Made by a program: the position numbers and the translations under genes
Notes under the pieces: generated by a model
The model's input: only the letters and a program-made list of their open reading frames with translations
Database searches by the model: none
Told to the model about the DNA's origin: nothing
Source of the DNA: a virus
DNA: 64,000 bases
Virus record (IMG/VR): IMGVR_UViG_3300032315_001401
Span: 124,018 to 188,017 of that record
Direction: 5' to 3' (one strand)
In this document: positions 40,015 to 61,416 of the stretch, piece after piece
How the letters are laid out: every line of letters begins with the position of its first letter
Position numbering within the stretch: position 1 is the first letter of the stretch

Positions 40015-40665
40015 TTATAAGACCAGATACTTTTGAGAGTATAGCACTGACCACATTCGTTCTGCGGTATAAGCATAACCGATATTATTTTTTCTCTCAA
40101 AAATGTTTAAATATTTTTTATAAAAACTTTTTGAATAGTGACGAATTCTTTCTGATGATACGCAAAATTGACCACAAGTAGCATATTCAACTTTTTTAAA
40201 CTCAGGTTCTTTTCCAAAAAGTTCTACATAAGTTTCAAATAATTCAGTTTCATTTATATTTTCAGTAGTGTACCAATCTGTTAAGGGGATATAATCAAAA
40301 TCTTCTACTTGAATTTTTTCCCTTCTTTCTAAATCTAAAAAACAATCTAAAAATCTTTCTACATTCCCAATAAAATGATAATGGGGACTTCCTTGTAAAA
40401 ATATCAAATGATTTGGCAGAGTATCATAATTATTCACAATATGGTACACCCAACTATGATGCTCTAGTCCAATATTTTTTAAACGAATATATGGATAAGG
40501 TAGATTGTCGTCACCCTTATTATAGATTATAGAATAATCTAGATATGGATTAATCCATGATAAACCCTCATCATAACGGGTCACAATAATATTGGTATCT
40601 TTACCAGAAAGGTTCTTTGGCGTATCCAAAATATTCAAAATCATTTTTATAAGTTTCCTGTACAA
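40015..40665 (-). CDS. DUF3431-like protein
   Basis: IVTRYDEGLSWI...IYNKG...NIGLE...YHIVNNYDTLP...IFLQG. Confidence 0.75.
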   Translation of the reverse strand: MYRKLIKMILNILDTPKNLSGKDTNIIVTRYDEGLSWINPYLDYSIIYNKGDDNLPYPYIRLKNIGLEHHSWVYHIVNNYDTLPNHLIFLQGSPHYHFIGNVERFLDCFLDLERREKIQVEDFDYIPLTDWYTTENINETELFETYVELFGKEPEFKKVEYATCGQFCVSSERIRHYSKSFYKKYLNIFERKNNIGYAYTAERMWSVLYSQKYLVL

Positions 40666-41317
40666 AATGAATCAATTCATCAGTATATAATTTACGATAA
40701 TTGCGATCATATTCTGCTTGATTAAATTTAAACTTATTAACCTCTTTGAGTTTAAAATCTCTTTCCAAATCTACCAAATCTGTTTCCATTTTATAAATTT
40801 TATCACATTTTACATCGCCATTAATGTCTTTTAAATAATTAACTTGATTTACAAGATAATTACAAGGATCCATTTTCAATATTTTGTTAATTTTTTCATG
40901 ATTTATAAATTCGCTTGGAGATGGTATAGAAAATTCAAAATACTTATCCAGATAATAAATGCTTGCATAATAATGAGATATAAACTTTGTATATGGGTTT
41001 CTGACAATTGTCATGATTTTTTCACCATTATACATTCCGGATTTTTGCCATACCCAAAGAGGGGAGTGTTGCACCTCAAATAATAATTCCGACTTAGCAA
41101 TATTAAAATATTCAACGGGTATTAAACCGGTTTTTACACATTCACTTTCATACTGCTCCCAAAGTAAATCTACAATAGGAGCATCAATATCATTAAAATT
41201 TTTATCAAAAATAAAATATTCTCCAGAATAATATTTAATGATGATTTTCTTAAGATTCCCACCAGATGTTTTTGGTATGTGAATATACATCCACCCATCG
41301 TCAATTAACTTAAACAT
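40601..41317 (-). CDS. Sulfotransferase (Sulfotransfer_2-like)
   Basis: HIPKTSG (5-PSB) and VRNPY..FIS (3-PB) PAPS-binding motifs. Confidence 0.85.
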   Translation of the reverse strand: MFKLIDDGWMYIHIPKTSGGNLKKIIIKYYSGEYFIFDKNFNDIDAPIVDLLWEQYESECVKTGLIPVEYFNIAKSELLFEVQHSPLWVWQKSGMYNGEKIMTIVRNPYTKFISHYYASIYYLDKYFEFSIPSPSEFINHEKINKILKMDPCNYLVNQVNYLKDINGDVKCDKIYKMETDLVDLERDFKLKEVNKFKFNQAEYDRNYRKLYTDELIHFVQETYKNDFEYFGYAKEPFW

Positions 41318-41342: not shown

Positions 41343-41690
41343 TCAATCCAATTTAATCTTATTCATTCTATACGAAGTTGCTATCAATTCTTGAGTATTA
41401 ATAGCAATAACACGATTTAATTGTGTTTTAATATCTGTACTTTCAAGTAATTCAAATTCTGTATTTTGCGGCAAAGTTGGTTCTTCAGATTCTTGTTGCA
41501 GAATAATATGTGCCCCAGATCTCATAATGGAAGAAACAAATTGATAATAATCACTACAATCAATATTGCAACAATCAATTGCAACGGGTGGATAATCATC
41601 TATTGGTTTTGGTGCATTTTGTCTACAAAATTTTATGATTATCTGATCTGTTTCTTCAATATACTCTACTATTTTGAATATGAAATTCAT
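41343..41690 (-). CDS. Hypothetical late protein
   Basis: ORF track; CTAAATA at 41717-41723. Confidence 0.65.
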   Translation of the reverse strand: MNFIFKIVEYIEETDQIIIKFCRQNAPKPIDDYPPVAIDCCNIDCSDYYQFVSSIMRSGAHIILQQESEEPTLPQNTEFELLESTDIKTQLNRVIAINTQELIATSYRMNKIKLD

Positions 41691-41738: not shown

Positions 41739-42296
41739 TTACTCTTGCATTAATCCCCAAGAAGATAAAATATATTTTGTTTGATTTATAGGAGGATTTC
41801 CTCTATGAGTATGAGTAAATCCTGCAGGAAAAATAATAAGTCTGCCTGCTTTTGACTGTACTCTTTTATTTAAATATAAAAATTCGGTCTCACCACCTTC
41901 TTCAATTTCATTCAAATACAATTGAACTACAAAAACTCTTGATGCTGAGCATAAATTAGAACTCTCATAATGCCAATCATGAAATCCACCACCAGCAGGA
42001 ATTTTCTTTGCTTTTACATCATAAATTAAAAATTTTCCCTTTGATAAGATACTATATGTTGAAATATAATTATCAATACAAGTTTTGATTGCTGGGAAAA
42101 AATGCTCACCAATCCAAGTCCAAGCAGATAGATCATAATTGTGAGACATATTGCTAAACTTATGGTCTATTCTATGACTTTTCTCATCTGCTTGAAAAAT
42201 CATTGTATTTTTTTCTAGTTCTTCAATATAGTTTATAAAGTAATCACATTGTTGTTGTGATAAAACATTGTCATAAATCGATAAAAAATCTTTCAT
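41739..42296 (-). CDS. Fe(II)/2OG oxygenase (HxE variant)
   Basis: GFHDWHYE...YLN...GGETEF...FPAGFTHTHRGNPP...K. Confidence 0.88.
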   Translation of the reverse strand: MKDFLSIYDNVLSQQQCDYFINYIEELEKNTMIFQADEKSHRIDHKFSNMSHNYDLSAWTWIGEHFFPAIKTCIDNYISTYSILSKGKFLIYDVKAKKIPAGGGFHDWHYESSNLCSASRVFVVQLYLNEIEEGGETEFLYLNKRVQSKAGRLIIFPAGFTHTHRGNPPINQTKYILSSWGLMQE

Positions 42297-42306: not shown

Positions 42307-43308
42307 TTAAGTTACTGAACCATTATACTGTATTGTACCATGTAATGTGCCACTTCCAGAAATTGTAACTGATCCACTACCAGAAGTTACAATAATTCCA
42401 TTTCCATTTGAACCTGCAGGACCACCCGATCCACTAGTTACATTACCACTACCATCACCACCCTTTTGGGCAGCATTACTCGGATCTCCACCTGCTCCAC
42501 CAGCACCAGCAGCTGCCCCGCTACTGCTGCCACCAGGACCACCCAATCCTCTTACCGTAGCAGTTGAATCATTACCATCAGTACCTTTTGAACCAAAACC
42601 ATAGACTCCACTATCTGTAGTAAATCCTTTTGTTCCAATAGAATATCCTGCACCACCACCGCCACCTCCTCCAGAGGATCCAGCATCCTGTTGGTTTTTA
42701 TCTGGATCATTTGAAGCATTGCCACCGCCACCACCACCACCATAACCGGATTGAATATATCCATTATTAATTAATGTTGCTCCAGAATATTCTATGCCCA
42801 GAGCACTAGTTCCATCACCTCCAGCACCACCATTTGCATCTCCACCTTTACCACCAACACCGAAAATTTGCCCAGAAGATCCAACATCTAGTTGAAGAGT
42901 TGTTCCAGAATCCCAAGACCCAGTTCTTAATGCAACATTACTCACCGATCCGGATGTAGATCCAAAAGTTTTATTAATATTAATGAAAACTTTTATACCA
43001 GAAGTGTTAGCCGGAGCTCCTCTAAATCCCCCTATAACTCTTAAATTGCCGTTATTATATTTTGCTCTAGCGTTTGTTCTAAATTCTGCCGATCCAGAAT
43101 AACAATCAACAATAACATTTAATTTTTTACTATAAAAATCACTGAATCTAATTGTCCCAGATTGAGAAATTCCCGTATCAAGTGGTAAATTATTTAAAGA
43201 TCCAACACTTTCAGAAACTCGATACAACCCGAATCTATTACTAGTCGGAACTCCAAATTCATTTGCAATTTGAGAAAACCTTATTGGTCCAGAACCTTGA
43301 AGTGCCAT
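42307..43308 (-). CDS. Glycine-rich tail-associated structural protein, paralogue A
   Basis: LQGSGPIRFSQIANEFG N-terminus; GGGGG tracts; paralogous to 55651-56886. Confidence 0.7.
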   Translation of the reverse strand: MALQGSGPIRFSQIANEFGVPTSNRFGLYRVSESVGSLNNLPLDTGISQSGTIRFSDFYSKKLNVIVDCYSGSAEFRTNARAKYNNGNLRVIGGFRGAPANTSGIKVFININKTFGSTSGSVSNVALRTGSWDSGTTLQLDVGSSGQIFGVGGKGGDANGGAGGDGTSALGIEYSGATLINNGYIQSGYGGGGGGGNASNDPDKNQQDAGSSGGGGGGGAGYSIGTKGFTTDSGVYGFGSKGTDGNDSTATVRGLGGPGGSSSGAAAGAGGAGGDPSNAAQKGGDGSGNVTSGSGGPAGSNGNGIIVTSGSGSVTISGSGTLHGTIQYNGSVT

Positions 43309-43323: not shown

Positions 43324-44019
43324 TTATTTATAGGTTTTCCAGTATTTTTGATGAATATATCCCATCGAATGAGATAAGTGTTCTTCCTTTAAAACTAATG
43401 TTATGTCACCAACAACTGCTAATCTTTCACCTTCAAAATTCGAAATCATAGAACTTGTTGAATGTATAGTTTTACTTGGAAAAGCAATTATATTTCCTTC
43501 ATTAGGAACCATAAAAAAAGTTTCACAATTTATATCATTATATTCTTTAACGAATTGTCTAGAATAATCTGGATGATCTTTTGTCATTCCAAGGAATAAA
43601 CTATTTGGCAAATGTTGATTTGAAAATTTTAATGCATGAGCATTTTGTGGAACATTTACATAATATGCAAAAGAAATGTGACTAGTTGAATGAATATGCC
43701 AAGGAATTTGATCTTTTGAATTTTGAGATCTCGACAACCAAGTTTTAGTAATGACAAAATCAAAAACATCCTTGAGCAAGAGAACATTTTGAGCATAATT
43801 TTTAATATGTTCAATAATGTCTTCGAACAAAGGATTCAAACTTTCTTCTAGATGCAATAAAGGATTACCGACATTTTCACTCACAGTCGTGTTAAATTGA
43901 TCTCTTTCCCAATCAAATTTTGGATAAACTTCATAAAATAATTTTTTATGGTTTATGTGATTTTCAATTTTTCCAACATAAGCAGTTGTCGGGAAAAAAT
44001 TAATAACTTCAAAATTCAT
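43324..44019 (-). CDS. Putative Fe(II)/2OG oxygenase (TIGR02466-like)
   Basis: FFPT...WHIHSTSHISFAYYV...FPSKTIHS. Confidence 0.75.
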   Translation of the reverse strand: MNFEVINFFPTTAYVGKIENHINHKKLFYEVYPKFDWERDQFNTTVSENVGNPLLHLEESLNPLFEDIIEHIKNYAQNVLLLKDVFDFVITKTWLSRSQNSKDQIPWHIHSTSHISFAYYVNVPQNAHALKFSNQHLPNSLFLGMTKDHPDYSRQFVKEYNDINCETFFMVPNEGNIIAFPSKTIHSTSSMISNFEGERLAVVGDITLVLKEEHLSHSMGYIHQKYWKTYK

Positions 44020-44034: not shown

Positions 44035-45984
44035 TTAAACAGATGTACCACTAATATATTTCCATCCAGAAGTAGATGAATCATAATATTCTAAACGATT
44101 TAAATTAACATTATACACCATTGCACCACCTAACATGCCGGTTAAATTATTTCTTTGAGTTGTCGTCACTCTTGGTGGATACATATACATCTTATTTGCA
44201 GATGCACCAGTTGCCTCTTTTCCAGCGTCTGAAAAATCAACAAAAGATTTTAATGAAGTAGTTCCTACACCAACAGCACCAAATATAGCATTTGTATTTA
44301 AAGCATCAAATCCTACACCATCTGTAATAGAAGATGTTTTGACACCAACAGATCCTTGTTGATTGACAATAAATTTATTAGTTGGAAGTGAATTAATTTC
44401 TAACGGATTATTATTTGGATTTGTTGTTCCAATTCCTACAGAAAACTCAAATAGTGCTTTGTCAGTAACTTTAATATCATTAAATGTAGAAATTCCAGAT
44501 AAAGCATTTACATTTCCAGTCAAATTGCCGTTTACATCAGCAGTAAATGAACTCAATACAAGTGATCCATTAATGCTTAAGTTTCCAACAATTTCTACAT
44601 TATTGCCAAAATAAGCATTAGAAGTAACAGTTGATGTTCCAACAACATGTAAAGTATTTGATGGAGTTGTAATACCAACACCCAAATTACCACCGTAAGT
44701 CAAAGTCATCAATCTAGCAAAATTTTTCCTTCTGTGCCAGTAGAAATTGCCAGTGCTAATTCCAGGAGTCCCTGCTTCTAGATAAAAGTTTAAATTTCCA
44801 GTGGAATAGTTGAGAATGTCTAAAGAGTTTTGATCACTGTATGGAAAAAGACCCGATGTGTTTCCAAATCTTAAGACACCATTAGAAGCTTCTAAAGAAT
44901 TACTTCTTCCAATTGAAATTATTGCAGATTGTGTATCACTAGTAACTAAAATAGAAGCAGCAGTGGCATTTCTGATTTGAAAATTTCCAATTGGACTATT
45001 TGTCCCTATACCAATACTTGTTTGAGCAACTAAATTTGTGGTTGTTGTAAGACCAGAAACACCAAGAGTTGTTGCAGTTACAATTCCATTTGCATTTATA
45101 TTTGTAACAGCGATATTTGGACTTCCAGATAAAGAAGTTGCAGTTGTTGCGGTTCCAGTTAAGTTGCCGACAAAAGTAGTTGCAGTTACAATTCCACCAA
45201 CATTAATATTTGATGGAAGTCTGCTATTAGATAGTGTTCCTGAAGAAATATTGGAAGCATTAATTCCAGAAATATCAGTTCCAAATCCACTAAAACTATA
45301 ACCAGTTATAATACCAGAGAGATTAATATTTGATGGAAGTCTGCTATTAGATAGTGTTCCTGAAGAAATATTGGAAGCATTAATTCCAGAAATATCAGTT
45401 CCAAATCCACTAAAATTATATCCGGTTATAGTGCCAGTGACATTAATATTTGATGGAAGTCTTGCAGTATTTAATGTTCCTGATGAGATATTGGTAGCAT
45501 TAATTGATGTAATATTATCACCAGATCCAACAAAACTTGAAGCAGTTACAATTCCAGCATATGTTGCGTTTCCATTGTTATTAATTGTGACTCCAACACC
45601 AACTTGAAAATTGCCCGTTGGAAGAGTTGTACCAATTCCAACTTTTGATGTGGTAGAAATATTTCCGGCAGAAACATACCACCCATCAACGGCAATAGCG
45701 TAAATTCCGGTTAAACCAGCAGCACTTCCGGAGAAAGATGCTGCCGTCACTACTCCAGAAGTATTGATATTTTGCGCTGTTAAAAATCTAACTGTTGCAA
45801 CTCCAACATTCAATTGACTTACAGTTATAAGTCCGGTGACTCTAGTGTCTCCATATACATTCAAAAGATAAGATTCTGGAATTGTTGTTCCAATTCCAAC
45901 CAAACCATTAGCATTTACAACAAAGTTGTCATTATCAACTTGAACCCCATTCCTAAAGTTAAATGACTTATTATAATTTGCCAT
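44035..45984 (-). CDS. Tail fibre/structural protein
   Basis: KSFNFRNGVQVDNDNFVV N-terminus; repeated VGIGTT motifs; ATAAATA at 46005-46011. Confidence 0.75.
   Translation of the reverse strand: MANYNKSFNFRNGVQVDNDNFVVNANGLVGIGTTIPESYLLNVYGDTRVTGLITVSQLNVGVATVRFLTAQNINTSGVVTAASFSGSAAGLTGIYAIAVDGWYVSAGNISTTSKVGIGTTLPTGNFQVGVGVTINNNGNATYAGIVTASSFVGSGDNITSINATNISSGTLNTARLPSNINVTGTITGYNFSGFGTDISGINASNISSGTLSNSRLPSNINLSGIITGYSFSGFGTDISGINASNISSGTLSNSRLPSNINVGGIVTATTFVGNLTGTATTATSLSGSPNIAVTNINANGIVTATTLGVSGLTTTTNLVAQTSIGIGTNSPIGNFQIRNATAASILVTSDTQSAIISIGRSNSLEASNGVLRFGNTSGLFPYSDQNSLDILNYSTGNLNFYLEAGTPGISTGNFYWHRRKNFARLMTLTYGGNLGVGITTPSNTLHVVGTSTVTSNAYFGNNVEIVGNLSINGSLVLSSFTADVNGNLTGNVNALSGISTFNDIKVTDKALFEFSVGIGTTNPNNNPLEINSLPTNKFIVNQQGSVGVKTSSITDGVGFDALNTNAIFGAVGVGTTSLKSFVDFSDAGKEATGASANKMYMYPPRVTTTQRNNLTGMLGGAMVYNVNLNRLEYYDSSTSGWKYISGTSV
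45202..45480. repeat. 120-nt (40-aa) tandem repeat inside a fibre gene
   Basis: Units start at 45202, 45322, 45442; the first two are identical over about 94 nt. Confidence 0.85.
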
Positions 45985-46003: not shown

Positions 46004-49000
46004 TTATTTATCTTGGAGTTTTTGTTCAAGATTCTCTACTTTATTAGACAACTCTTTAATTGCCTCTATAAGAAGTGGAACAAGTTTTTGATAATCAACT
46101 GCCAGATATCCATTATCTCTTGTAATAACTGCCTCTGGAAGAACTTCAAGAATTTCTTGTGCAATCACGCCAACATCATTTCCAGATTTATTTGATTTTT
46201 CATTCCAATCATAAGTATTGCCACTAATTGAAAGAATTTTACTAAGAGAATTATCGATTGGAACAATATTATCTTTCAATCTCCGATCAGAACTATAATA
46301 AGCAATAATGTCTTGTGTAACTCTTAACTCACCATTAATTGTTGTAACATCAGTATCTGTGTCTCCAAGAGTCGTGTTTCCACTAACATTTAATGTTCCA
46401 GCAACTGTCACATTTGTGCCAGAGAGAGTAATGGCAGTTGAACCATCAGATGCTTTAATATCATTACCGTTAATCTTAAGGTCACCAGCAATTATTGCAT
46501 CAGATCCAGAAAGACTGATTGATACTGAACCATCAGATGCTTTAATATCATTACCGTTAATCTTAAGATCGCCAGCAATTATTGCATCAGATCCAGAGAG
46601 AGTAATGGCAGTTGAACCATCAGATGCTTTAATATCATTACCGTTAATCTTAAGATCGCCAGCAATTGTTGCATCAGATCCAGAAAGACTGATTGATACT
46701 GAACCATCAGACGCTTGAATATCATTGCCCCCTATACGAAGATCACCAGCAATTGTGGTTAATGTATTGGAAGTTAGAGTAATATTAGTATTACCATCAG
46801 ATGCTTGGATGTCATTACCATTAATTTTAAGATCGCCAGCAATTGTAGTTAATGTATTGGAAGTTAGAGTAATATTAGTATTACCATCAGATGCTTGGAT
46901 GTCATTACCACCTATACGAAGATCACTACTTACAACTACAACTCCAGTTCCATTTGGTGTGAATATAATATTGCCATTTGTATTTGTAGAACTCAATACA
47001 TTTCCATCCAATCTCAAATTATCAATATTGAGTAAAGTATTAACATTAACACTGCCAGTAAATGTAGAGTTACCAGCAACATTTAAGTTTTCGCCAATTC
47101 CAACTCCACCTTTAACAGTTAGAGCACCTTTTCCAGATGAATCTGAAGTTGCCGTATTAGTGATTCTAACTTGACCACTGAATGTGACTGCATCTTTTGC
47201 TCTGATTTGCTTGTTGAATGTAACCGGACCATCAAACTGTGAAAGAATTGTACCAGAATCTCCACCTTCTACAAGAAGTCTTTCCTTAACAGTAACTTCA
47301 TCATAAACAACACTAGATTTGGAAGGATCTTCACCAGTTACTGTTGGAGTTGGAATATCATATGATGTGATCTCACCCGAAGTTGAAGATGTTTTGGTGT
47401 TTCCACTGAAGAAATCACCGTTATTGTTCATACCAGTATAGACAACAATACCACCAGATCTTTCTTGCGATTGAACAAGGAAGTCCTCTCTTTCAGTAAG
47501 AGATCTAACTTGTATTTGGGGCAATCCTGTCGAATAGTTTCCAGGACCATATCCAAGATACTCAAATGTATGTCCAGAGGCACGAAGAATTGATGGTCTA
47601 CGGAATTCAACTGGGATTGGGTTAATCTTACGAATTAGTGACCCTGCATCGTGACTTTCTTTTCTAGTTCCAAGAACACCACGAATCACTGTAAATTGAG
47701 AATCGTTACTTGAGGAAGTAATTCTCATTACTTCATTATCAATTTGAATATAAGATCCCATTGAGAATCTTGCGCCAGTGCCAATACCTGAAGCAATGGA
47801 AGAAACTTGAAGAGTCGTTGCTGCAGAATCATCAGTAATTGCTACCGTAAGTCTTACAATTTCATTTCCATAGAAAGAAGTTTGACGAATACCAAAGTTT
47901 TCTTCCCTAATATCAGAAATTGCATCATTCGCTGACAATCCATGCTTTAATACATAACCGTCTGTAACACTTAATGATTGATTTGTAATCGCAGTAAATG
48001 TGGTTACACCTACTCTTTCCTTAACTAGATAATCTCCAGCATTATTGTTGGAAGAATCAATGACTCTAAACTTGTTTCCCGCTAACAATCCGTGCGGAGT
48101 TGTAGTTGTAAATGTTGTAATTCCAGTTGCTGAACTATAACTTGTAGTTGTAATTCTAGAAGATGGTGCTATAGTTATAACATATTGACCAACAACTGGT
48201 GTTGGATCGCCAGCAGTTTTAGCAATCGAAATTTGTGTTGTTGAGTTAATCGCACTAATACGATGATAAGAATCAGATGTAGTGCCGATGCCAGTAATCT
48301 GCACTACCTCTCCAATGCCCGTGGAAATTCCTGCAGTTGATAGAGTATATCTTGCACCACCATTTCCTGCACCAATTCTAGTCGAATCGAAGTAAAGTGC
48401 ATCTCCATTTGTATAACCAGATCCAGCAGAAATAATATCAGCGGAAATTACACCACCACCAGAAACAACAACTTTTGCTGTTGCTCCTTTCCATGTTCCA
48501 ACAAGTGGATCTGCATTTCCATTTAAAAGTTTTACATCATAATAGGTGCCATCATTATATGTTGCTGCACTAGTAAGTGTGCCAAGAGCAATACTACCAA
48601 GACCATGATTTCTTCCAAAAGTAAGAGTAGCACTAGTTGCTGGATCAACTGAAGAAACAGAAGTTATTGGTTGTCCAATTCCCAAAGATGTGACAAATTT
48701 ATCAACAGTTTCTCTAGTAATACTCTTTTTCAAATCACTTGTATTTGTATCTCCAATTGGAGCACGAAGAGCAAATGTCTTTGCTGCCGGTGGATTGGAA
48801 TTAATATTATCCCTATCCAATTGAGGATAAAGGTCTACAGGACTTTGAGAATACTTTAGATTTGTAAATTCTTCTGTAATTGCATTGTTTGCATTTAAAA
48901 TATATAAATGATAAATTCCATCCTGTTGTCCTTCAACGTAAGAAGAAATTACTTCATTTCTATAGATATAAAGATTCTGTTGAATATCATTTCTTTCAAA

Positions 49001-52664: not shown

Positions 52665-52737
52665 TAGGCGTGGTCGGATTCGAACCGACCCTGGAGGCGT
52701 TTTAAGCGCCCTGTCTCTGCCGCTGGACTACACGCCC
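52665..52737 (-). tRNA. trnL-UAA: tRNA-Leu(UAA), short variable loop
   Basis: Acceptor GGGCGTG/CACGCCT, anticodon loop CTTAAAA, T-arm GTCGG-TTCGAAT-CCGAC, A73; no encoded CCA. Confidence 0.88.
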
Positions 52738-52779
52738 GTGTATGAGACCATTATAAACTCAAAGAGTTCTAATAGTCAA

Positions 52780-52851
52780 TGCTCGTTGTCGGTTCTGCCC
52801 CGACCTTCGGCGCTTTATGAGAACGCTGCATTCCTAGATTGCTAAACGAGC
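52780..52851 (-). tRNA. tRNA with CAU anticodon (elongator Met or Ile2), atypical T-loop
   Basis: Acceptor GCTCGTT/AACGAGC, loop CTCATAA, T-arm GTCGG-GGCAGAA-CCGAC; lacks initiator features. Confidence 0.8.
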
Positions 52852-52874
52852 ATTCGCTATTCGCAAACAGCGAA

Positions 52875-52946
52875 TGGGAATACTGGGAGTTGAACCCAGA
52901 CTAAGCCCTTATAAGGAGCCCGCTCTAACCATTAAGCTATACTCCC
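52875..52946 (-). tRNA. trnI-UAU: tRNA-Ile(UAU)
   Basis: Acceptor GGGAGTA/TATTCCC, loop CTTATAA, T-arm CTGGG-TTCAACT-CCCAG. Confidence 0.9.
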
Positions 52947-52994
52947 ATAAAAGTTGCCTTGAAGCAACATATAAGACCTATATGTGGTCTTGAC

Positions 52995-53165
52995 TCAACT
53001 TCCCTCTTCGTGATCAGTGTGTATTCGTATGAGTTCGTCATCTGCGGGCGCCATAACCGCCGCGTTACCATTTTCATCTATTATTCCTAAACTTTCTCCA
53101 TTTTCAACTCGTTCCATAAGTTCATCAAAACGATCTTGAAATTCTTCTACTGTAAAAACTTCCAT
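52995..53165 (-). CDS. Phd/YefM antitoxin-like small protein
   Basis: Hand-translated MEVFTVEEFQDRFDELMERVENGESLGI...NAAVM. Confidence 0.55.
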   Translation of the reverse strand: MEVFTVEEFQDRFDELMERVENGESLGIIDENGNAAVMAPADDELIRIHTDHEEGS

Positions 53166-53168
53166 TTC

Positions 53169-53360
53169 TTAAAAAGGATTACTATATGCTAGGCAATCAT
53201 CACTTACCTGAGTACGCACAACTTCCAGTACATTCATGAACTGCTCAACATTTTCACATTCTACAACTCTTTCACTACCTTCACTTGAATAAAGATAGAA
53301 CTTACGTGCCAGAGTATCCACGACGCAGCGGGACAGAAACTCTTCGGTGTTGGCAGGCAT
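53169..53360 (-). CDS. Conserved cyanophage hypothetical protein
   Basis: VVDTLARKFYLYSSEG...EQFMNVL. Confidence 0.7.
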   Translation of the reverse strand: MPANTEEFLSRCVVDTLARKFYLYSSEGSERVVECENVEQFMNVLEVVRTQVSDDCLAYSNPF

Positions 53361-53385: not shown

Positions 53386-53414
53386 ATTATAGGGCATCCG
53401 GGCGCGGGTGTCAA
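53386..53414 (-). promoter_or_regulatory. Consensus sigma70 promoter TTGACA-N17-TATAAT driving the tRNA operon
   Basis: -35 53414-53409, -10 53391-53386. Confidence 0.85.
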
Positions 53415-54034
53415 GCGTATAGACTCAGACCAAAAAATTGAGTCACACAAATTCTACCATTTAAGTCATTCAAATTCTCCGAATCCATAGAAATTTTAGA
53501 AACTTCATGTTTAATGTTAGATGGAAATATTACAGTACAATTGTTAGATACTTCAATTGTTATATCATAGTCAGTAAATGTTAAACTACCACCTTCAAAT
53601 TTTTTAGGTTGTTTATAAAACCAAGTTAGGCAAGTCAAAAATGCACTATCAGTATGTGGATGATAATAATTTCCATTTTCATAATAAGAAATGAGAGTAT
53701 TATCTTGATTAAAGAATATATTTTTAAAAAACCAACTGGGGTGATTATTATAAATTTCTTCTTTGTTTAATATGAGTTTTTTACCTACTTTGTAGATATT
53801 TGAAAAATCAAATTCTTTATAGATATCTGTAATCCATAATCCTGAATTATTTTTCTTATAAACTTTTTCACCATCAACTGTGTCATAAGCACTTCCGGTT
53901 TTTTCTGGCGAATTAAATTTCTTACTATAATAAAGAAATTTAAGTTCATCCCAAATTAAATTTAATTCATCCTCTGTAAAGGTATTCTTTATTGCTATGA
54001 AGGGAAATGGATTTTCATAATGCGTTATTTTCAT
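53411..54034 (-). CDS. Fe(II)/2OG oxygenase, prolyl-hydroxylase-like
   Basis: YYENGNYYHPHTD...FEGGSL...FPSNIKHEV...R. Confidence 0.88.
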   Translation of the reverse strand: MKITHYENPFPFIAIKNTFTEDELNLIWDELKFLYYSKKFNSPEKTGSAYDTVDGEKVYKKNNSGLWITDIYKEFDFSNIYKVGKKLILNKEEIYNNHPSWFFKNIFFNQDNTLISYYENGNYYHPHTDSAFLTCLTWFYKQPKKFEGGSLTFTDYDITIEVSNNCTVIFPSNIKHEVSKISMDSENLNDLNGRICVTQFFGLSLYA

Positions 54035-54113: not shown

Positions 54114-54671
54114 TTAATGATTATTTAAATAATCTTCCACTGGTCTATGGCACCCAAACATCCACAAAATTCTTGAGGTGTTTCCTTCTACTTCAGTTAC
54201 ATAATGAGACTCTTCTGATGCATAATAGCAATGAAGATCTCCCACAGATATATCTCTAAAAACATTATTAATATAAAGTTTTCCCCCAGATTCTGCAGAT
54301 TGAGTTAAAATATTACATCTAAATGTCGCAAGACCCTCTTTAGATCTAGGGTCCATATGTTTATATACATTACCTCCAGGAAAAGTAACAGATGTTACTA
54401 TACCCTCGCTTCCATGCCCATGTATTACTGGATAATTTTTAATATTTAAAAATTCTTGGATTTGATTTGAAATTTCATAAACAATAAGTGGATATTTTTT
54501 ATCATTCATATACATTCTACTAGTAAGTCTTTGTCTATATGCAAAAGATGTCCCCCAAGATTCTTTAGTTATACCAGGACCAATCCAACCACTTTTTACT
54601 CCAAGAATTGATATTTCATTTAATAATTTGCATTTTTCTTTAGATAAAAAATTTGGAAAATGCAACATCAA
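54114..54671 (-). CDS. Fe(II)/2OG oxygenase
   Basis: VYKHMD...SGGKL...ESHYVTEVEG..SR. Confidence 0.8.
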   Translation of the reverse strand: MMLHFPNFLSKEKCKLLNEISILGVKSGWIGPGITKESWGTSFAYRQRLTSRMYMNDKKYPLIVYEISNQIQEFLNIKNYPVIHGHGSEGIVTSVTFPGGNVYKHMDPRSKEGLATFRCNILTQSAESGGKLYINNVFRDISVGDLHCYYASEESHYVTEVEGNTSRILWMFGCHRPVEDYLNNH

Positions 54672-55621
54672 ATTAAATCGGTTGAATATTCAAACATCTC
54701 AAATTCCTCTAAACATCTTTCTTGTATCGCTTTCATAGATTCTTCCGTATATACATCAACATACCTCTCTCCATTGATATCATTAAGTTTTTGATTTGAC
54801 CATTTTACACCATTTTGCTCAAAAAAAGATTTACCCTGTGTATTCAAATCTTCAAATTTTATAATTTTTAAACGCTCATCATACCCATTAAGGAAAAAAG
54901 TTTGTCTTTGCATAAAATAGTAGTGATCATAATTTCCTTCTGATAAAGAAATTGCAAAATCATTAAAATTAGTTTCTACTTCTGGAAATTCCAAATTGCC
55001 AGGCAATCCATAAACTCTAGACCACTTCCATAAACTATAAATTCTATCATATGGATTTCTAACAATCGATATAAATTTTACTCTTTCATCATTTGATAAT
55101 TCTATATATTTTTTCACAAACGAAATTCTAGGAGCATTTTTGATTGGAATAGAAAAAATATTATTATTTACAAAAGGATCCAAAATTTTAGATGTTTCTA
55201 TGGATTCTTTTATTCTAGATTTTATAAAAGTTCCTGCAGTTTTGGGAATGTGAATATAAATCCATGCTTCTTTATCCTGATCGGTTAAATCATTTTGAGA
55301 ATTTAAAATATTATTTAAGGTTTCATCATTTCCGGCAGTGCTACTACCATTTAAAACATATATTTCTTTAGTTTCATCAAAAGTTACATCAGGAAAACTT
55401 TTTTCAGTATAAGATTCTAATGCATCAAGATATGGTTGCAAAATTGAAACATCATTAAAGGTTGTATTCACTATAGAATCTTGCTTAAATTCAACAGTTC
55501 CTTCACCATTTTCCCATTCTATACGTTCTATATGGGTATCATTAAAATTCCACTCTGGGATATTTAATGATTCTTCATCGGTTTTTATCCACCTCATTGA
55601 TGGAACAATGGTTATTTTCAT
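54668..55621 (-). CDS. Fusion: small N-terminal domain plus C-terminal sulfotransferase
   Basis: HIPKTAG and VRNPYDRIYS in the C-terminal 200 aa; unrelated N-terminal ~105 aa; CTAAATA at 55643-55649. Confidence 0.78.
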   Translation of the reverse strand: MKITIVPSMRWIKTDEESLNIPEWNFNDTHIERIEWENGEGTVEFKQDSIVNTTFNDVSILQPYLDALESYTEKSFPDVTFDETKEIYVLNGSSTAGNDETLNNILNSQNDLTDQDKEAWIYIHIPKTAGTFIKSRIKESIETSKILDPFVNNNIFSIPIKNAPRISFVKKYIELSNDERVKFISIVRNPYDRIYSLWKWSRVYGLPGNLEFPEVETNFNDFAISLSEGNYDHYYFMQRQTFFLNGYDERLKIIKFEDLNTQGKSFFEQNGVKWSNQKLNDINGERYVDVYTEESMKAIQERCLEEFEMFEYSTDLI

Positions 55622-55650: not shown

Positions 55651-56886
55651 TTAAGTTATTGAACCATTATACTGTATTCCACCATATACTGCACCACTTC
55701 CCGAATATGCATACGAAGCACCGGAAGTTATAATAATTCCGTATCCATTTGATCCTGCAGGTCCTCCTGTTCCCTTTGGTTGGTTTCCTGAAACTCCATC
55801 TTGTCCGTTTTGAGGAGCATTACTTGGATCACCACCCGGTCCACCATTACCAGCTACAGCTCCACCACCACTACCACCAGAACCACCCAATCCTCTAACT
55901 GTATCTGTCGAATCATTTCCATTACCACCTACTCCACCAAAACCATAATAACCATTAGATGACCCAAATCCTTTGGTTCCAATAGGAAGTCCAGCACCAC
56001 CACCACCGCCACCTCCGGAGGAACCAGCATCTTGTTGGTTTTTATCTGGGTCATTCGCAGATGTTCCACCGACTCCACCACCACCATGCCCACATTGAAT
56101 ATAACCATTATTAGTTAAAGATGTCCCATATTCTATGCCTAAAGCACTAGTTCCATTTCCCCCCGGATTTAAAGTGTAAGAACTATATGTTACACTCCAG
56201 TTCCTACGCGCTTCATATATCCCCAATCCACCTTTACCAAATGGAATAACCGTGTAATTACCAGGATACCAACCAGAAGTCCAATCTCCAGCAGGTGGAC
56301 CAGGTTCGGAATTTTTACACCAAATTGGACCTCGTAATGATCCTTTTATATCTCTATAACCAACACAATAACTTGCATAAACAGCAGTTCCACTTTCGGT
56401 TACTGTAGTTACGCTGTAATCCCCACCTCTTCCTCCCGCACCAAATATAGCCGCATTTGAACCCAAAAGAACTTCAAGAGATGCTGATGTTCCCCAAGTA
56501 CCAGTTCTCAATGCTACATTGCTGATAGCTCCGGCAGCAGATCCTATTCTTTTATTGACACTGACTAATATTCTTTTTTGACTTGGATCTGCAGGTTTAG
56601 ACTTAAACCCCCCGATTACACTAATGCCACTATTTTGATCATATTTTGATCGCATATTAACTCTATATTCTTCACCACCAGATATATCTAGAACGATGTT
56701 TAATCGTTTTCCCCTCAATTGACTAAAACTAATTGGACCACTTTGAGGAATTCCTGAATCAAGAGGTAAATTTGAATAAAGAGCTGCTGATTGTGATATT
56801 CTATATGCTCCCAAAGATTTGGATCCATTTCGTCCAAACTCCGATTCTATATCAGAAAAGTTTATACGACCGCTTGGAGTAGGCAT
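55651..56886 (-). CDS. Glycine-rich tail-associated structural protein, paralogue B
   Basis: SGRINFSDIESEFG N-terminus; shares NDPDKNQQDAGSSGGGGGGGAG with 42307-43308. Confidence 0.7.
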   Translation of the reverse strand: MPTPSGRINFSDIESEFGRNGSKSLGAYRISQSAALYSNLPLDSGIPQSGPISFSQLRGKRLNIVLDISGGEEYRVNMRSKYDQNSGISVIGGFKSKPADPSQKRILVSVNKRIGSAAGAISNVALRTGTWGTSASLEVLLGSNAAIFGAGGRGGDYSVTTVTESGTAVYASYCVGYRDIKGSLRGPIWCKNSEPGPPAGDWTSGWYPGNYTVIPFGKGGLGIYEARRNWSVTYSSYTLNPGGNGTSALGIEYGTSLTNNGYIQCGHGGGGVGGTSANDPDKNQQDAGSSGGGGGGGAGLPIGTKGFGSSNGYYGFGGVGGNGNDSTDTVRGLGGSGGSGGGAVAGNGGPGGDPSNAPQNGQDGVSGNQPKGTGGPAGSNGYGIIITSGASYAYSGSGAVYGGIQYNGSIT

Positions 56887-56898: not shown

Positions 56899-59800
56899 TT
56901 ATTTTGATTTCTTAAGTTCTTCAATTTCTACTTTCAGTTCTTTAATTGCTTCCACTAATAATGGAACAAGTTTTTCATATTTCACGGTTAGATAATTATT
57001 GTCTGCTGGAGCAGGTGCAACTGCTTCTGGCAGAACAGACTGAATTTCCTGAGCAGAAACACCAGAATGTCTTTGCTTAGGATTAAATCCAAGTTCTTCA
57101 CCAATTTGATTGAAACTATAAGTAAATCCTCTCAGAGAACAAACTTTTTCTAAAGCATTGTCAATAATTTCAATATTTTCCTTCAGTCTTTCATCAGAAG
57201 CAAAAGCAGTAATATCACCAGCAACAACAACATTTGTTCCATCGAATGTGAAATTTGCAGAGGTAGTGGCTTGATTACTTGCGTTCTTATAAAGAACTTG
57301 ATTTGCATTTCCAACATTTATGTTTGAATTAGAAGCTGCTTGTTGCGCTGAAAGTGTTGCTTGAGATGCAGATTGTGCTGCTTGTCCCGCAGACCCCGCT
57401 GCTGCCCCTGCAGATTGTGATGCTGCTGTCGCAGACCCCGCTGCTTGTCCAGCAGAACCCGCTGCTGCTCCTGCAGATTGTCCTGCTGCTGTTGCAGATC
57501 CAGATGCTTGGGCAGCAGATTGTCCTGCTGCTTGTGCTTGTGCAGCAGATTGTGCAGCAGATTGTGCAGATGCTCCTGCAGATTGTGCTGCTTGTCCCGC
57601 AGACCCCGCTGCTGCCCCTGCAGATTGTGATGCTGCTGTCGCAGACCCCGCTGCTGCTCCCGCAGATTGTCCTGCTGCTTGTGCTTGTGCTGCTGATTGC
57701 GCAGCAGATTGTGATGCTGCGTTTGCGGATTGTGCTGCTTGTTGTGCAAATGGTTGCGCTGCTGCTGCACCAGCCTGTGCTCCTGCTGTGGCACCTGCTT
57801 GCGCCCCTGCAGCGGCGCCTGCTGCTGCAGCGGCAGTAGTCGTTAGTGTTATAGTTGCATTAGCGCCAGATGCAGTTGCTGTTATATCAGCACCAACAAA
57901 GTTAATTGAAGTAACTCCACCAGAAGTTCCTACTGTTATTCCCTCATCTTGAATTGTAATTCCACCAATTGCCTGCTGTGAAGATCCACCAAAAGTAACA
58001 GATCCATTTACAGTTAAATTGCCAGTTATCGTAGTTTGACTTGCTTCTAGATAAAGATCGTCATCAGCATCATTTTTAATACCAATATGTAATCTTGTAT
58101 TTTCTCCAGATTCTACATAATATCTAATAAATGCTTCATCTCCAGAACCTCCTCCAGGATCACTATTCCAAACAATACCTTTATCACCAGTTCCTGCAGA
58201 AGGAATGATTTTACCACCAGAAGATAAATTACCACCTACAGTTAATAAATTTGTAGAAGGTTGATAACTTAATCCAGAATTTGTATAGACTGCTTCATAA
58301 TCAGCAGGGGAATTATTACTATCAACAAAGGTTGGGTAAAAAGTATTTACACTTACACTAGATACTGTTTTAATTTTATCTGCTTGACCAGCAGTGGATC
58401 CACTTAAATTAAAAGTTCCTGCTGATGTTATTCTACCTTTAGCATCAACAGTAAATGTTGGTATTGTATTTGGTGAAGAACCATAAGTTCCTGCTGTCAC
58501 ACCAGAGTTTGCTAGAGTTGCTCCTGAAGATACATTAGTAGATCCATCAAAGTTAACGTTCCAAGCAAGATCTCCAGTAATTGCAATATTTCTTGAGTTT
58601 AGTAATTTAGTTGCAGTATCAGCATTGCCAGTAATAGCACCAACAAATGTAGTAGCATGAACTTCATTCCATTTATTAGAGGCACCACCTAAATTTAAAG
58701 TTCCCGAAGTTCCCTGTGGTAATAAATTGCCAGAACTATCAAGAAGAAGACGTGAAGTATTGTTAGTATAAATTGCTAAAGAACCGTCAGTTGAACCTCC
58801 ACCTCTTATAAACTGTAAGAAAGTATTCCATCCAGTTCCAGAATAATTAATACCAAATCTCGATACTTCTTGACCACTGGCATTAGTTGCAGAACCATTT
58901 TGTGCAGATAATTGGAAATTATTATCTGCACCACGAGTTAATATGGTAGTAACTGAAGATGCTGTGGTTTTACTTACATTTAAATTAGAAACTGTAAGTG
59001 TATCTGTGCTTGTATTATAAGAAATTCCAGCATCGGTATAAAGTGCTTCATAGGCAGCAGTAGAATTATTACTATCTACAAATGTTGGATAAAAAGTAGC
59101 ACCAGTTTCTGTAGTTACTGTTTTAACTTTATCAGCATTTGCAACTGTTGCATTGGCAAAATCAATAGCAACATTAGATGCTGAAGTGATTCTTCCTTTA
59201 GAATCTACGGTAAATTGACCTACATTGGTCGAATTTCCATAAGTATTAGCAGATACTCCAGTATTTGCTAAAGTTCCGGTTGCAGTTACATTTGCACTTC
59301 CATCAAAGTTAACGTTCCAAGCAAGATCTCCAGTAATTGCTATATTTCTAGCAGTTTGAAGTTTTGTAGCAGTATCAGCATTGCCAATAAATTGCCCATT
59401 AAATGTAGTAGCATAAACTTCATTCCATCTCAAAGAACTAGAACCTAAATCTCTGCTATTATTGGTCAATGGTAAAATATCACTATTAACTCCAGCAGTA
59501 AAGACAACTGTATCTGTACTAACATCTCCTAACGTTACATTACCATTAAAATTTACATTACTATTGAAAGTTGATATTCCAGAAACAATTAAATTATCAT
59601 CAATTGTTGTGGTGCCCCCCGCACTATCAATTGTCAAATTACCTGTTGTAGTATCAATTTCATTATCACCCGTAATGCCAATTTGAATATTGTCAATATA
59701 AGCACCACCATTAGCATCAATATGACTATCAAAAGTGCTAATGCCAACGACTTTTAAATTTCTTGTTGTAGTAAGTCCAGAAACACCAAGTGTTGCAATG

Positions 59801-61416
59801 GTAGCAATACCAGTAACTTGAAAATCTTTGGTTTTTAAAAATTCAGTGAATTCTGCTTTTCTACCACTAATTTCATCATAGTAAACATCATCTAAAACAT
59901 ATAAATCTCCACCGACATAAAGATCTCCACCAGTGGTTGTAATACCCCCCAAAGTCGCTAGTGCAACTGCACCACCAACATTTAATCTCTTTTCAATTCC
60001 AACTCCACCTTCAGTATAGATTGAACCAGTATCTTTATTGGTAGATTCTGTAGTATCATTTATATAAAGAGCATCTCTAATTTCTGCGGTTCCGGCAGAT
60101 GAGTCTAATATTAAATTTCCAGTGTTTGTGCTAACTGTGTTTGTGTCTAATTTAATATTATCAAATGTTCCTACTCCAGTAACACTTAAATTATTGATAG
60201 TAACTTGCGAATCAAACGTTGAAATACCAGTGACTTTTAAACGATTAAGTGTTGTAGATTCATAAACTTGAAGATTTTGAGTTGTAGTGAATCCAGTTAC
60301 GCCTAGATCACTATTAATATTTGCTTTTTGTAAAAATGTCGATACTCCGGTGACATATAAACTAGTTACATCAATCGCACCAACTAATTTTGATGCAGTT
60401 ACAATTCCAGTAAAATAAGCACTTGTTCCCGTTACAAATCCAATAGTTGTAACTCCAGTTACAAAAAGATTACGAGTTGTTGAAGTGCCAGATACTGCAA
60501 GAGTTCCAGTGGTTGTAACTCCAGTTACACGCAAATTATCAATTATAGTACCACCTTTAAATGATGAAATGCCAATCACATCTAAAGTTGTTTTTGGATA
60601 AGTACTTCCAATACCTACTCTCGAATTAATTTCATCATATACAAAAGTTGAAGCGCCATCAACTAATCCCGCACTATTATTATATTGGATATTCTGATAT
60701 GTTCCACCTGCTCCAGCACGAATTGTAGATTGGTTTATCCAAAGAACCCCACCAAAATTATTTTTTACTAAAACTTGAGAATTTGATCCTGGACTATCTG
60801 TATAATCGTAGATTGTTCCAGTTAATCTCAAATCTCCCTGAACATGCAATTCTTGTGTTGGATTTGAAGTTCCTATACCAACTAAACCAGCATCAGTAGT
60901 TGTGAGTACTGTTCCACCAGTTCCAACAGTAATTCTATCTCCAGCAGTAAATAATCCAGTTACTTTATCAAATGTTAATTTTGTTGAAGTTCCAAATTCA
61001 TTATTATCATTAAATAAAACTTGTTTATTAATTCCAGGAGAAAATACAGTGACAGTTACGCCAATTCCAGGACTTCCATTGGGGTTTAAATAACCTTTTG
61101 CACTAACAGCTGCACCAACAAAATTGACTTGAGAAATACTACTTACACCAGCATTATTTGGTACAACAACTCCTTCATCATATACGGTAATTGATCCGGG
61201 AATTAATCCACCACCTACAGGAATCCAATATCGTTCTCCAGGAACACCCAAAACAGAAATGATTTGATATTGTTGTCCAATAGGAAGAGTCTGAGGAACT
61301 AATGATGGATCGCCAAGATTTGGTTCAGCATCTGAGAGAGATAAGTACCTGTTCCTATCATTTGGTATTTCAGATTGAGAAGTTCTTTTAACTCTTCCAC
61401 TTAAATATTTTGCCAT
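56899..61416 (-). CDS. Long tail fibre with C-terminal S74 chaperone
   Basis: Two ADTATKL..RNIAITGDLAWNVNFDGS repeats; SDERLKENI...GVSAQE...YEKLVPLLVEAIKEL. Confidence 0.85.
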   Translation of the reverse strand: MAKYLSGRVKRTSQSEIPNDRNRYLSLSDAEPNLGDPSLVPQTLPIGQQYQIISVLGVPGERYWIPVGGGLIPGSITVYDEGVVVPNNAGVSSISQVNFVGAAVSAKGYLNPNGSPGIGVTVTVFSPGINKQVLFNDNNEFGTSTKLTFDKVTGLFTAGDRITVGTGGTVLTTTDAGLVGIGTSNPTQELHVQGDLRLTGTIYDYTDSPGSNSQVLVKNNFGGVLWINQSTIRAGAGGTYQNIQYNNSAGLVDGASTFVYDEINSRVGIGSTYPKTTLDVIGISSFKGGTIIDNLRVTGVTTTGTLAVSGTSTTRNLFVTGVTTIGFVTGTSAYFTGIVTASKLVGAIDVTSLYVTGVSTFLQKANINSDLGVTGFTTTQNLQVYESTTLNRLKVTGISTFDSQVTINNLSVTGVGTFDNIKLDTNTVSTNTGNLILDSSAGTAEIRDALYINDTTESTNKDTGSIYTEGGVGIEKRLNVGGAVALATLGGITTTGGDLYVGGDLYVLDDVYYDEISGRKAEFTEFLKTKDFQVTGIATIATLGVSGLTTTRNLKVVGISTFDSHIDANGGAYIDNIQIGITGDNEIDTTTGNLTIDSAGGTTTIDDNLIVSGISTFNSNVNFNGNVTLGDVSTDTVVFTAGVNSDILPLTNNSRDLGSSSLRWNEVYATTFNGQFIGNADTATKLQTARNIAITGDLAWNVNFDGSANVTATGTLANTGVSANTYGNSTNVGQFTVDSKGRITSASNVAIDFANATVANADKVKTVTTETGATFYPTFVDSNNSTAAYEALYTDAGISYNTSTDTLTVSNLNVSKTTASSVTTILTRGADNNFQLSAQNGSATNASGQEVSRFGINYSGTGWNTFLQFIRGGGSTDGSLAIYTNNTSRLLLDSSGNLLPQGTSGTLNLGGASNKWNEVHATTFVGAITGNADTATKLLNSRNIAITGDLAWNVNFDGSTNVSSGATLANSGVTAGTYGSSPNTIPTFTVDAKGRITSAGTFNLSGSTAGQADKIKTVSSVSVNTFYPTFVDSNNSPADYEAVYTNSGLSYQPSTNLLTVGGNLSSGGKIIPSAGTGDKGIVWNSDPGGGSGDEAFIRYYVESGENTRLHIGIKNDADDDLYLEASQTTITGNLTVNGSVTFGGSSQQAIGGITIQDEGITVGTSGGVTSINFVGADITATASGANATITLTTTAAAAAGAAAGAQAGATAGAQAGAAAAQPFAQQAAQSANAASQSAAQSAAQAQAAGQSAGAAAGSATAASQSAGAAAGSAGQAAQSAGASAQSAAQSAAQAQAAGQSAAQASGSATAAGQSAGAAAGSAGQAAGSATAASQSAGAAAGSAGQAAQSASQATLSAQQAASNSNINVGNANQVLYKNASNQATTSANFTFDGTNVVVAGDITAFASDERLKENIEIIDNALEKVCSLRGFTYSFNQIGEELGFNPKQRHSGVSAQEIQSVLPEAVAPAPADNNYLTVKYEKLVPLLVEAIKELKVEIEELKKSK
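57330..57845. repeat. Ala/Gly/Ser/Gln low-complexity coding repeat
   Basis: AAGQSAGAAAGSA-like units; GC-rich; long duplicated block near 57389 and 57599. Confidence 0.85.

Follow-up and report, generated by a model that had tools for sequence, protein, structure and literature searches.

Cyanophage genomes contain up to two dozen genes for Fe(II)-dependent oxygenases that use 2-oxoglutarate (2OG). These are usually filed as metabolic helpers, and genome papers treat them as untested metabolic genes (PMC3037559, PMC9602691). This text describes a stretch of viral DNA in which such genes, and sulfotransferase genes as well, accompany the genes for tail-fibre tips. The stretch, called the window below, is 64,000 nucleotides long (positions 124,018 to 188,017 of IMG/VR record IMGVR_UViG_3300032315_001401). 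It forms the final 64 kb of a 188,017-base cyanomyovirus record with an estimated completeness of 84%. The source is an uncultured, S-SRM01-like cyanomyovirus of the T4 type, and in 50,697 phage records only cyanomyoviruses are related to it at the nucleotide level. The top relative is S-SRM01 (Kyanoviridae), a freshwater Synechococcus phage, with 82.6% nucleotide identity confined to the long fibre gene (gp050). The window holds a host-recognition (distal tail-fibre) cluster in two sets, each with an S74 long fibre, a gp38-type adhesin and a variable enzyme cassette. This gene arrangement is real and clearly non-random.

Arrays of this kind have been described before. The genome of phage Syn9 was reportedly described by Weigele et al. 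in 2007. Its fibre-proximal tandem dioxygenase/halogenase array (gp32-gp54) was read by Iyer et al. in 2010 as secondary-metabolite biosynthesis (PMC2938197). We checked this array, and it comes after the fibre genes and two Gly-rich proteins and before a helicase. The window resembles Syn9 (and Syn10) in having fibres, Gly-rich tip or 'assembly' proteins (gp38 and gp39 there), tandem, distantly related 2OG dioxygenases and a helicase. In both, the enzymes come from several families, with no recent duplicates among them.

There are also clear differences. No match to a tryptophan halogenase (PF04820) or to JmjC/MINA was found in the window's two modules. Each module instead has a sulfotransferase, and one also has a DUF3431 gene. 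The arrays of the window are short, at 2-3 enzymes per module, with a part detached 20 kb off, and the adhesin family differs. The window has the Syn9-type fibre-linked tailoring array in a variant with sulfotransferases and without halogenases, set on gp38-type adhesins.

The adhesins have solved counterparts in gp38 of T2/S16/PP01-type phages (PDB 6F45, 9V85), and in gp24 of Pam3, a glycine-rich tip (PMC9608196). Like these, the window adhesins are predicted to have a polyglycine-rich sandwich fold, and their genes lie directly behind that of the distal fibre. As in T2/S16/PP01 gp38, there is a variable insert, probably at the receptor-binding end. Unlike them, the window adhesins show no significant sequence match to the solved proteins. 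To our knowledge, no oxygenase or sulfotransferase gene adjoins the gp38 genes of known systems.

Iyer, Abhiman, de Souza and Aravind (2010) also predicted, for bacterial operons, hydroxylation and then sulfation of co-encoded collagen-like or tail-collar proteins (PMC2938197). These operons pair genes for dioxygenases of the beta-hydroxylase or PhyH type with sulfotransferase genes. In both cases it is a prediction that a co-encoded fibrous protein is hydroxylated and that the hydroxyl is then sulfated. The bacterial substrates are collagen-like or tail-collar proteins, whereas the window is from a lytic phage with gp38-type adhesins.

Finally, Zaragoza-Solas et al. (2020) called the fibre island of pelagi- and cyanomyophages a host-recognition cluster, and read its glycosyltransferases as host-surface modifiers (PMC7029224). 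The window is likewise a hypervariable tail-fibre island mixed with seemingly fibre-unrelated enzymes. Glycosyltransferases are conspicuous in the published cluster, while the window has oxygenases and sulfotransferases tightly paired with the adhesin gene.

Two modules of fibre, adhesin and enzyme genes

An earlier reading of this DNA from its letters alone, the sequence-only reading, had described twin tail-fibre modules, each followed by oxygenase and sulfotransferase genes. Every open reading frame (ORF) that it named is present where it was placed, on the minus strand, with families assigned by Pfam and PHROGs. All features given below are on this strand.

Module A begins with FIB-S74_A (46004..51793; phrog_529), a distal long-tail-fibre protein of 1929 amino acids (aa). 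It is followed by a second fibre (tail protein), FIB2 (44035..45984; phrog_3269), which is 54% identical to the S-SRM01 tail fibre gp051. Next come the oxygenase oxy5 (43324..44019; GC 0.28), the 333-aa Gly-rich protein GP38_A (42307..43308) and the oxygenase oxyA (41739..42296). The module ends with sm (41343..41690), a conserved 115-aa accessory protein without enzyme signature, the 238-aa sulfotransferase SulfoT_A (40601..41317) and a DUF3431 protein (40015..40665; PF11913, E 1e-13), whose gene overlaps the end of SulfoT_A. Packing is tight, with gaps of 10-48 nt or overlaps. A strong intrinsic terminator (39974..39991; a 7-bp stem with 6 GC pairs, then TTTTT) directly after DUF3431 closes the module.

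Module B has the 1505-aa distal fibre FIB-S74_B (56899..61416), the 411-aa Gly-rich protein GP38_B (55651..56886), the sulfotransferase SulfoT_B (54668..55621), oxyE (54114..54668), whose start overlaps the SulfoT_B stop, and the oxygenase oxyB (53411..54034). Both sulfotransferases, both S74 fibres and the sole PF13759 gene of the record (oxy5) are located in these two modules.

The naming of both fibres as S74 proteins stands. Each ends in a Peptidase_S74 domain (PF13884), an intramolecular chaperone, which scores 59.8 bits (E 3e-16) in module A and 56.8 bits (E 2.7e-15) in module B, against a cut-off of 22. The Ser...Lys cleavage motif is present in both ends, as SDRRLK and SDERLK.

The Gly-rich paralogues are, by structure modelling, probably gp38-type adhesins. 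An AlphaFold2 (AF2) model of GP38_A, with 32 homologues, has a mean predicted confidence (pLDDT) of 90.9. A Foldseek search with this model found gp38 adhesins as the only PDB matches, each with probability 1.0: the receptor-binding domain of PP01 gp38 (9v85, E 6e-7) and the gp38 chain in the gp37-gp38 tip complex of S16 (6f45_D, E 3e-4). The model shows the polyglycine-II sandwich of these adhesins. Given this fold match, each module would consist of a distal fibre and its tip adhesin, as in T2/S16-type phages.

Sequence searches of the adhesins against the PDB gave low-complexity noise only, and hmmscan against PF05268 found nothing even at E 10. More than 2347 homologues exist in metagenomes, and most of these carry a precomputed PF05268 annotation. 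A tblastn search with the adhesin returned no cultured-phage match, only two single-cell-derived marine virus records. A collagen-like identity for the Gly-rich proteins was ruled out, given the lack of G-X-Y periodicity and the gp38-type fold.

As for the modules being twins, both exist, but they are not the product of a recent duplication. Pairwise comparisons of their members rule out a recent tandem duplication of the whole module. The similarity of the two S74 fibres is confined to the S74 end, and oxyA and oxyB are barely alignable. The two sulfotransferases are 23% identical, and despite this they follow the record's two adhesin genes. GP38_A and GP38_B are 48-71% identical, where the main difference is an 84-aa Tyr/Trp/Pro-rich insert in GP38_B (22 Tyr, 5 Trp).

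The oxygenases were for the most part named correctly. Both oxyA and oxyB belong to 2OG-FeII_Oxy_3 (PF13640; E 1.5e-7 for oxyB), and oxy5 to 2OG-FeII_Oxy_5 (PF13759). The iron- and 2OG-binding residues that mark the 2OG-Fe(II) superfamily are present and invariant within each family. These are H109-x-E111, H162 and K174 in oxyA, and H127-x-D129, H176 and R194 in oxyB. Two oxygenases outside the modules, described below, have H84-x-D86 and H135 (aspH1) and H87-x-D89, H142 and R155 (oxyC). A variant triad is found in oxy5: H108-x-H110, H186 and R199.

The remaining case is oxyE, which was also called a 2OG oxygenase and is assigned here from motif and fold alone. It has no Pfam family even at E 10 and no match to a PHROG oxygenase. 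In the ESM Atlas, it groups with 2OG-FeII_Oxy_3 (PF13640) and HalD-type clusters at template-modelling (TM) scores of 0.72-0.88. Because of this fold match and the H-x-D motif (within KHMDP), the oxygenase call is reasonable.

Collagen-type prolyl 4-hydroxylases (P4Hs) act on proline in extended peptides of the polyproline-II type. Such enzymes, from Bacillus anthracis (3ITQ, 5HV0; E 4e-6) and the algal virus PBCV-1 (5C5T), are the solved proteins nearest to oxyA, with E values from 4e-6 to 2e-3. Unlike these, oxyA has an invariant H-x-E core instead of H-x-D. For aspH2, encoded in the detached part of the array, the nearest solved relative is the human aspartyl/asparaginyl beta-hydroxylase AspH (E 7e-14 to 3e-13). 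The family alignments of sm and of the cupin cup contain no conserved catalytic residues, which makes these two better candidates for assembly helpers.

Both sulfotransferases are Sulfotransfer_2 proteins (PF03567; SulfoT_A 31.5 bits, SulfoT_B 22.6, cut-off 22), and the DUF3431 assignment was equally right. The motifs that bind the sulfate donor 3'-phosphoadenosine 5'-phosphosulfate (PAPS) are kept in the two, as HIPKTSG in one and HIPKTAG in the other, with RNPY...S, and they are invariant in 26 homologues. By these motifs and scores both are PAPS-dependent sulfotransferases. In the SulfoT_A family, H13, P15, K16, T17, S18, G19, H84, R106, N107, P108 and S114 are invariant.

The AF2 model of SulfoT_A (pLDDT 89) has a generic sulfotransferase fold. 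It matches SULT2A1, TPST1, HS3ST, HS6ST and HS2ST weakly, at E >= 0.05, and a profile search of the PDB gave E >= 0.09. SulfoT_B has an N-terminal extension of about 110 aa. The idea that this is an 'sm'-like domain was dropped after BLAST, HMM and phmmer showed no similarity. A single relative of the extension was found, in an orthologue from the locus L019 (of the survey below), and it is likewise fused.

The sequence-only reading noted no PAPS-synthesis gene in the window, and this extends to the whole 188-kb record, where adenosine phosphosulfate (APS) kinase, ATP sulfurylase and GT2 glycosyltransferase were searched for and none found. In the Synechococcus elongatus control genome, both PAPS-pathway families (APS kinase and ATP sulfurylase) are present, and a cyanobacterial host can supply PAPS. 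The same reading had also allowed for glycosylation of the fibres. With no glycosyltransferase found, this step is not supported.

Adhesin loci in related viruses

At least 295 relatives of the adhesin are available in IMG/VR, and the survey took 80 of them. The relatives were gathered with a narrow N-terminal adhesin alignment; the full alignment is swamped by poly-Gly patterns. Genes were called in all loci and labelled by profile hidden Markov models grown from the window proteins. Counts refer to 72 loci, all non-identical, in which 1.5 kb or more follows the adhesin gene. Individual loci are given by L numbers.

The adhesin gene lies directly behind the distal fibre gene in modules A and B, as it does in some 75 related loci. 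It was expected by the sequence-only reading that fibres and enzymes would be linked in other genomes as well. For the 2OG oxygenases this linkage is strong: the very next gene after the adhesin encodes one in 57 of 72 loci (79%), and there is one within 3 genes in 65 (90%). At least one oxygenase occurs before the helicase or the contig end in 68 of the loci, with up to five per cassette. For the sulfotransferases the linkage is rare (1 of the 80 adhesin loci).

Usually the genes run FIB-S74, FIB2, GP38, oxyA, [oxy5], sm, cup, [aspH], [oxyB], helicase. The commonest gene directly behind the adhesin is oxyA, which occurs in 48 of 72 cassettes, and its orthologue keeps this slot behind adhesins that are only 40-60% identical. 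The sm gene is found in 42 cassettes, mostly with the cupin cup after it, and oxyB in 39 related cassettes. The largest unlabelled clusters in the interval are PF13759 oxygenases, flavin tryptophan halogenases (13 loci), weak PF13640 matches, DUF6445 and DUF6356.

Some loci are rearranged. In nine, the order is GP38-[enzymes]-FIB2. In others, GP38 is followed by a convergent oxyB, and then by RNR in place of the helicase. The enzymes are behind FIB2 in eight loci. Where FIB2 or the helicase is placed elsewhere, the adhesin keeps its enzymes. In addition, members of the window's detached cluster are contiguous with the adhesin cassette in L012, L016, L066, L085 and L105.

S-SRM01 offers a direct comparison. 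Its order is FIB-S74 gp050, fibre gp051, tryptophan halogenase gp052, the Gly-rich 'gp37-gp38 adhesin tip' gp053, a small ORF and the helicase, so that the slot is filled by a halogenase. Its ORF53 was earlier read as an adhesin tip via HHpred (PMC8557907). The gp053 protein (L001, 10835-11923) contains 9 Trp, with an insert rich in Trp and Cys; other halogenase-linked loci range from L050 to L103. Adhesins beside a halogenase have more Trp than those without (3.5 vs 1.9, p = 9e-4, in a comparison of 3-4 clades only). Such Trp-rich adhesins are a possible natural substrate of viral halogenases of the VirX1 type.

Homologues of the sulfotransferases are few: 43 proteins in one search and 25 viral loci in another. 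A tblastn search with SulfoT_A found no match in the 50,697 phage records. A sulfotransferase identical to the window's is also present on a 231-kb contig. In these cassettes sulfotransferases are rare extras. DUF3431 is found elsewhere in the survey only in L002/L043.

An enrichment of Tyr in the adhesins was considered as a sign of tyrosine sulfation. It is weak (p = 0.048, n = 6), and was rejected because Tyr-rich adhesins occur without a sulfotransferase, and because the same adhesin occurs both with and without one.

One observation concerns a phage unrelated to that of the window. The Pelagibacter phage HTVC027P (L041) has, at 6400-8061, a three-gene unit with an oxyA-like 2OG oxygenase (33% identical). 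This unit adjoins genes for tail-collar and tail proteins.

Surroundings of the modules

Upstream of the S74 fibre in module B is a further fibre, FIB3 (62094..63944; phrog_17885 tail fiber, E 2.5e-148). Between these two fibre genes is that of a 223-aa protein (61419..62090; phrog_1276), which is kept in L019. The order FIB3-p223-FIB-S74-GP38 is common to module B and L019.

The modules are separated by an intervening block (51829..53360) with a DUF7294 gene, a small ORF, two tRNA genes, an HNH endonuclease and a 102-aa gene. This last gene is conserved, and precedes FIB-S74 in many loci. A perfect sigma-70-type promoter by sequence match (TTGACA-N17-TATAAT, 53386..53414) lies between module B and the block, where it overlaps oxyB at its end and points towards the DUF7294 gene. 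Its place behind module B suggests an early-type unit between the two fibre modules. The HNH endonuclease (52147..52587) has TATAAATA upstream, and is found in the same place in S-SRM01, L004 and L060.

The two tRNAs are tRNA-Leu(UAA) (52665..52737) and tRNA-Ile(UAU) (52874..52947). The low-GC enzyme genes use ATA 2.7x and TTA 1.5x as often as the fibre genes do. Given this excess, the phage tRNAs may serve the foreign cassette. The GC fraction of the enzyme genes is 0.21-0.31 throughout, compared to 0.34-0.42 for fibres and adhesins and 0.359 for the whole record. By this low GC, the enzyme genes look like a mobile, compositionally foreign gene pool. Far from the modules, at 2001-4000, GC reaches 0.58, much higher than in the rest of the window.

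Late-type TAAATA motifs had been pointed out in both modules. There are 57 of these in the window where 74 are expected, so they show no excess over chance. The T4-late-promoter-like motif TATAAATA is not enriched in the window either (3 found, 5.2 expected). Late-promoter motif counts are thus no higher than chance, though one TATAAATA (43325..43332) precedes GP38_A, 17-24 nt upstream of its start.

Beyond the terminator of module A lies the helicase gene (38709..39940), which is the cassette boundary in most related loci. The listed ORF (38709-40100) spans the terminator. The true start is probably after it, at a Met near 39940; the protein would then have about 410 aa, like that of S-SRM01. 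Just past the helicase is oxyC (37278..37772), a 2OG-FeII_Oxy_3 protein, and the order 'HEL ... oxyC' is also seen in L060 and L081-83.

The detached low-GC cluster is located at 17083..22230, with GC of 0.21-0.28. It consists of aspH1, two u250 paralogues of about 250 aa, oxyD, an S-adenosylmethionine (SAM) methyltransferase of the CMAS type, aspH2, one more gene and the cupin cup. It has two AspH-like genes and a P4H-like gene.

Possible modification of the fibre tip and other explanations

The most economical account of the oxygenase-adhesin pairing may be modification of the fibre tip. We put this forward tentatively, and rate it at somewhat below an even chance. During infection, the enzymes would be expressed from the tightly packed transcription units that also carry the fibre-tip genes, and would modify the tip proteins before assembly. 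Targets of the oxygenases could be Pro, Asp or Asn side chains located within or close to the polyglycine/polyproline-II-like domain or the variable insert. The sulfotransferase of this lineage could then add an O-sulfate, using PAPS from the host. This would alter the surface chemistry or stability of the receptor-binding tip, and adsorption with it. The acceptor of the sulfotransferase is the least certain step.

Several things are in favour of tip modification. The pairing of oxygenase and adhesin genes across the survey counts for it, also where genes are rearranged, and so do the fold match of the adhesins, the place of both sulfotransferases behind the two adhesin genes and the PAPS supply of a host. 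The solved proteins closest to oxyA and aspH2 hydroxylate peptidyl residues, and conservation extends to the catalytic residues. The genes of module A are tightly packed, with TATAAATA before GP38_A and the terminator after DUF3431. Halogenases share the slot, and adhesin Trp is higher beside them. By analogy, the bacterial operons of Iyer et al. also point this way.

Phage S-TIM4 adds a further analogy. Its ORF23 encodes a 2OG oxygenase with 36% identity to oxyA. During experimental adaptation to hosts, the adjoining structural gene ORF24 was mutated in 13 populations, with 21 mutations (PMC6224464). Only ORF35 equalled these 13 populations, and only ORF35 and ORF108 had more mutations (PMC6224464). 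ORF23 itself was mutated in two populations (PMC6224464), which would count for tip modification.

The following weighs against it. Accessory genes are known to gather in this interval, a hypervariable island (PMC7029224). S-TIM4 ORF23 is absent from virions, its Syn9 homologue belongs to the middle phase, and ORF23 is predicted to do likewise (PMC6224464). The window's own aspH, oxyD and cupin genes are 20 kb off, among non-structural genes. All surveyed loci are from one phage family, so the synteny may be inherited and not selected. The correlation of Trp with halogenases comes from about 3-4 clades. We also looked for a tie between Pro content and the presence of oxyA, and here the trend runs the opposite way, with Pro not higher.

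The sulfotransferases account for the rest of these points. Their homologues occur without an adhesin: in L004, L006, L011, L014 and L015, the sulfotransferase lies either in the interval from FIB2 to the helicase or immediately past the helicase, and neither adhesin nor oxygenase is there. Relatives in other T4-like and in unrelated viral contigs adjoin DNA polymerase, RNR or the baseplate hub. Near-identical adhesins are found with (L002) and without (L027/L044) a sulfotransferase. Reading the acceptor class from the fold was uninformative; since all sulfotransferase classes match SulfoT_A weakly, the acceptor does not follow from it. We found no paper that ties a sulfotransferase to phage fibres. 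For the sulfotransferases, tip modification is much less secure than for the oxygenase-adhesin pairing. The fuller proposal is that tips are hydroxylated and, here, O-sulfated with host PAPS, and that the swappable cassette is a chemical diversification system for host range. We consider this rather doubtful, if worth stating.

Three other explanations need to be set beside tip modification. The oxygenases, methyltransferase and sulfotransferases, with the halogenases of relatives, could together build or modify a small amino-acid-derived compound or free peptide in the infected cell, with the nearby fibres being incidental. This is the published reading of the homologous Syn9 cluster (PMC2938197), and the S-TIM4 homologue, non-virion and middle-phase, fits it. 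Many distinct dioxygenase families are found together, as in biosynthetic clusters; oxyE resembles HalD/BesD-type enzymes, which act on free amino acids; and the detached cluster has a CMAS-type methyltransferase. However, the surveyed cassettes contain no peptide synthetase, carrier protein or exporter that we could find. The number of oxygenases varies from 1 to 5 per cassette, unlike a fixed pathway, the enzymes track the adhesin gene through rearrangements, and the nearest solved relatives act on proteins. We consider such tailoring of metabolites unlikely. The host surface is another conceivable target, where hydroxylation or sulfation of lipid A or lipopolysaccharide, sulfated exopolysaccharide or surface glycoproteins would block superinfection, or keep progeny from sticking to debris. 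Sulfotransfer_2 members and phrog_3347 ('galactose-3-O-sulfotransferase') are typically carbohydrate sulfotransferases. The AspH family PF05118 takes in the lipid A hydroxylase LpxO too, and the methyltransferase of the CMAS type could act on lipids. The loci with a sulfotransferase and no adhesin are in line with this, and enzymes of the tail-fibre island, such as the glycosyltransferases of pelagimyophages, have been read in this way (PMC7029224). Against this, the enzymes are small, look soluble and gave no sign of a signal peptide or membrane anchor, though no dedicated search was made. The record also has no sugar-activating or glycosyltransferase genes, and the tight pairing of oxyA with the adhesin would be left unexplained. 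Surface remodelling strikes us as improbable on balance.

The cassettes could also be ordinary auxiliary metabolic genes in an interval that tolerates insertions, with oxygenases that consume 2OG (the nitrogen-status model of Sullivan et al. 2010) or hit unrelated targets. In the cyanophage literature such genes are normally read like this (PMC3037559, PMC9602691). The foreign composition of the enzyme genes agrees with it, as do the HNH endonuclease and tRNA genes in the same interval. 2OG oxygenase genes are found elsewhere as well; in Syn33, for example, they adjoin gp3 and uvsY. But the interval is filled almost wholly by oxygenases, halogenases and sulfotransferases, which is no random mix. 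The oxyA slot is constant behind divergent adhesins, and the enzymes move together with the adhesin. We give the auxiliary-gene explanation only a small chance.

The near-constant pairing of a P4H-like enzyme with a gp38-type adhesin provides a concrete substrate hypothesis that is cheap to test. The same goes for the cases where a halogenase or sulfotransferase is swapped in or added. Even if tip modification is wrong, the cassette still marks the host-recognition island clearly. If it is right, natural substrates would be named for viral halogenases and oxygenases of biocatalytic interest. Under the fuller proposal, there would be a first sulfated phage virion protein, and a natural substrate class for many orphan cyanophage 2OG oxygenases. 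The host range of abundant ocean and lake phages would then be set by post-translational chemistry as well as by fibre sequence, and this would affect host prediction from sequence.

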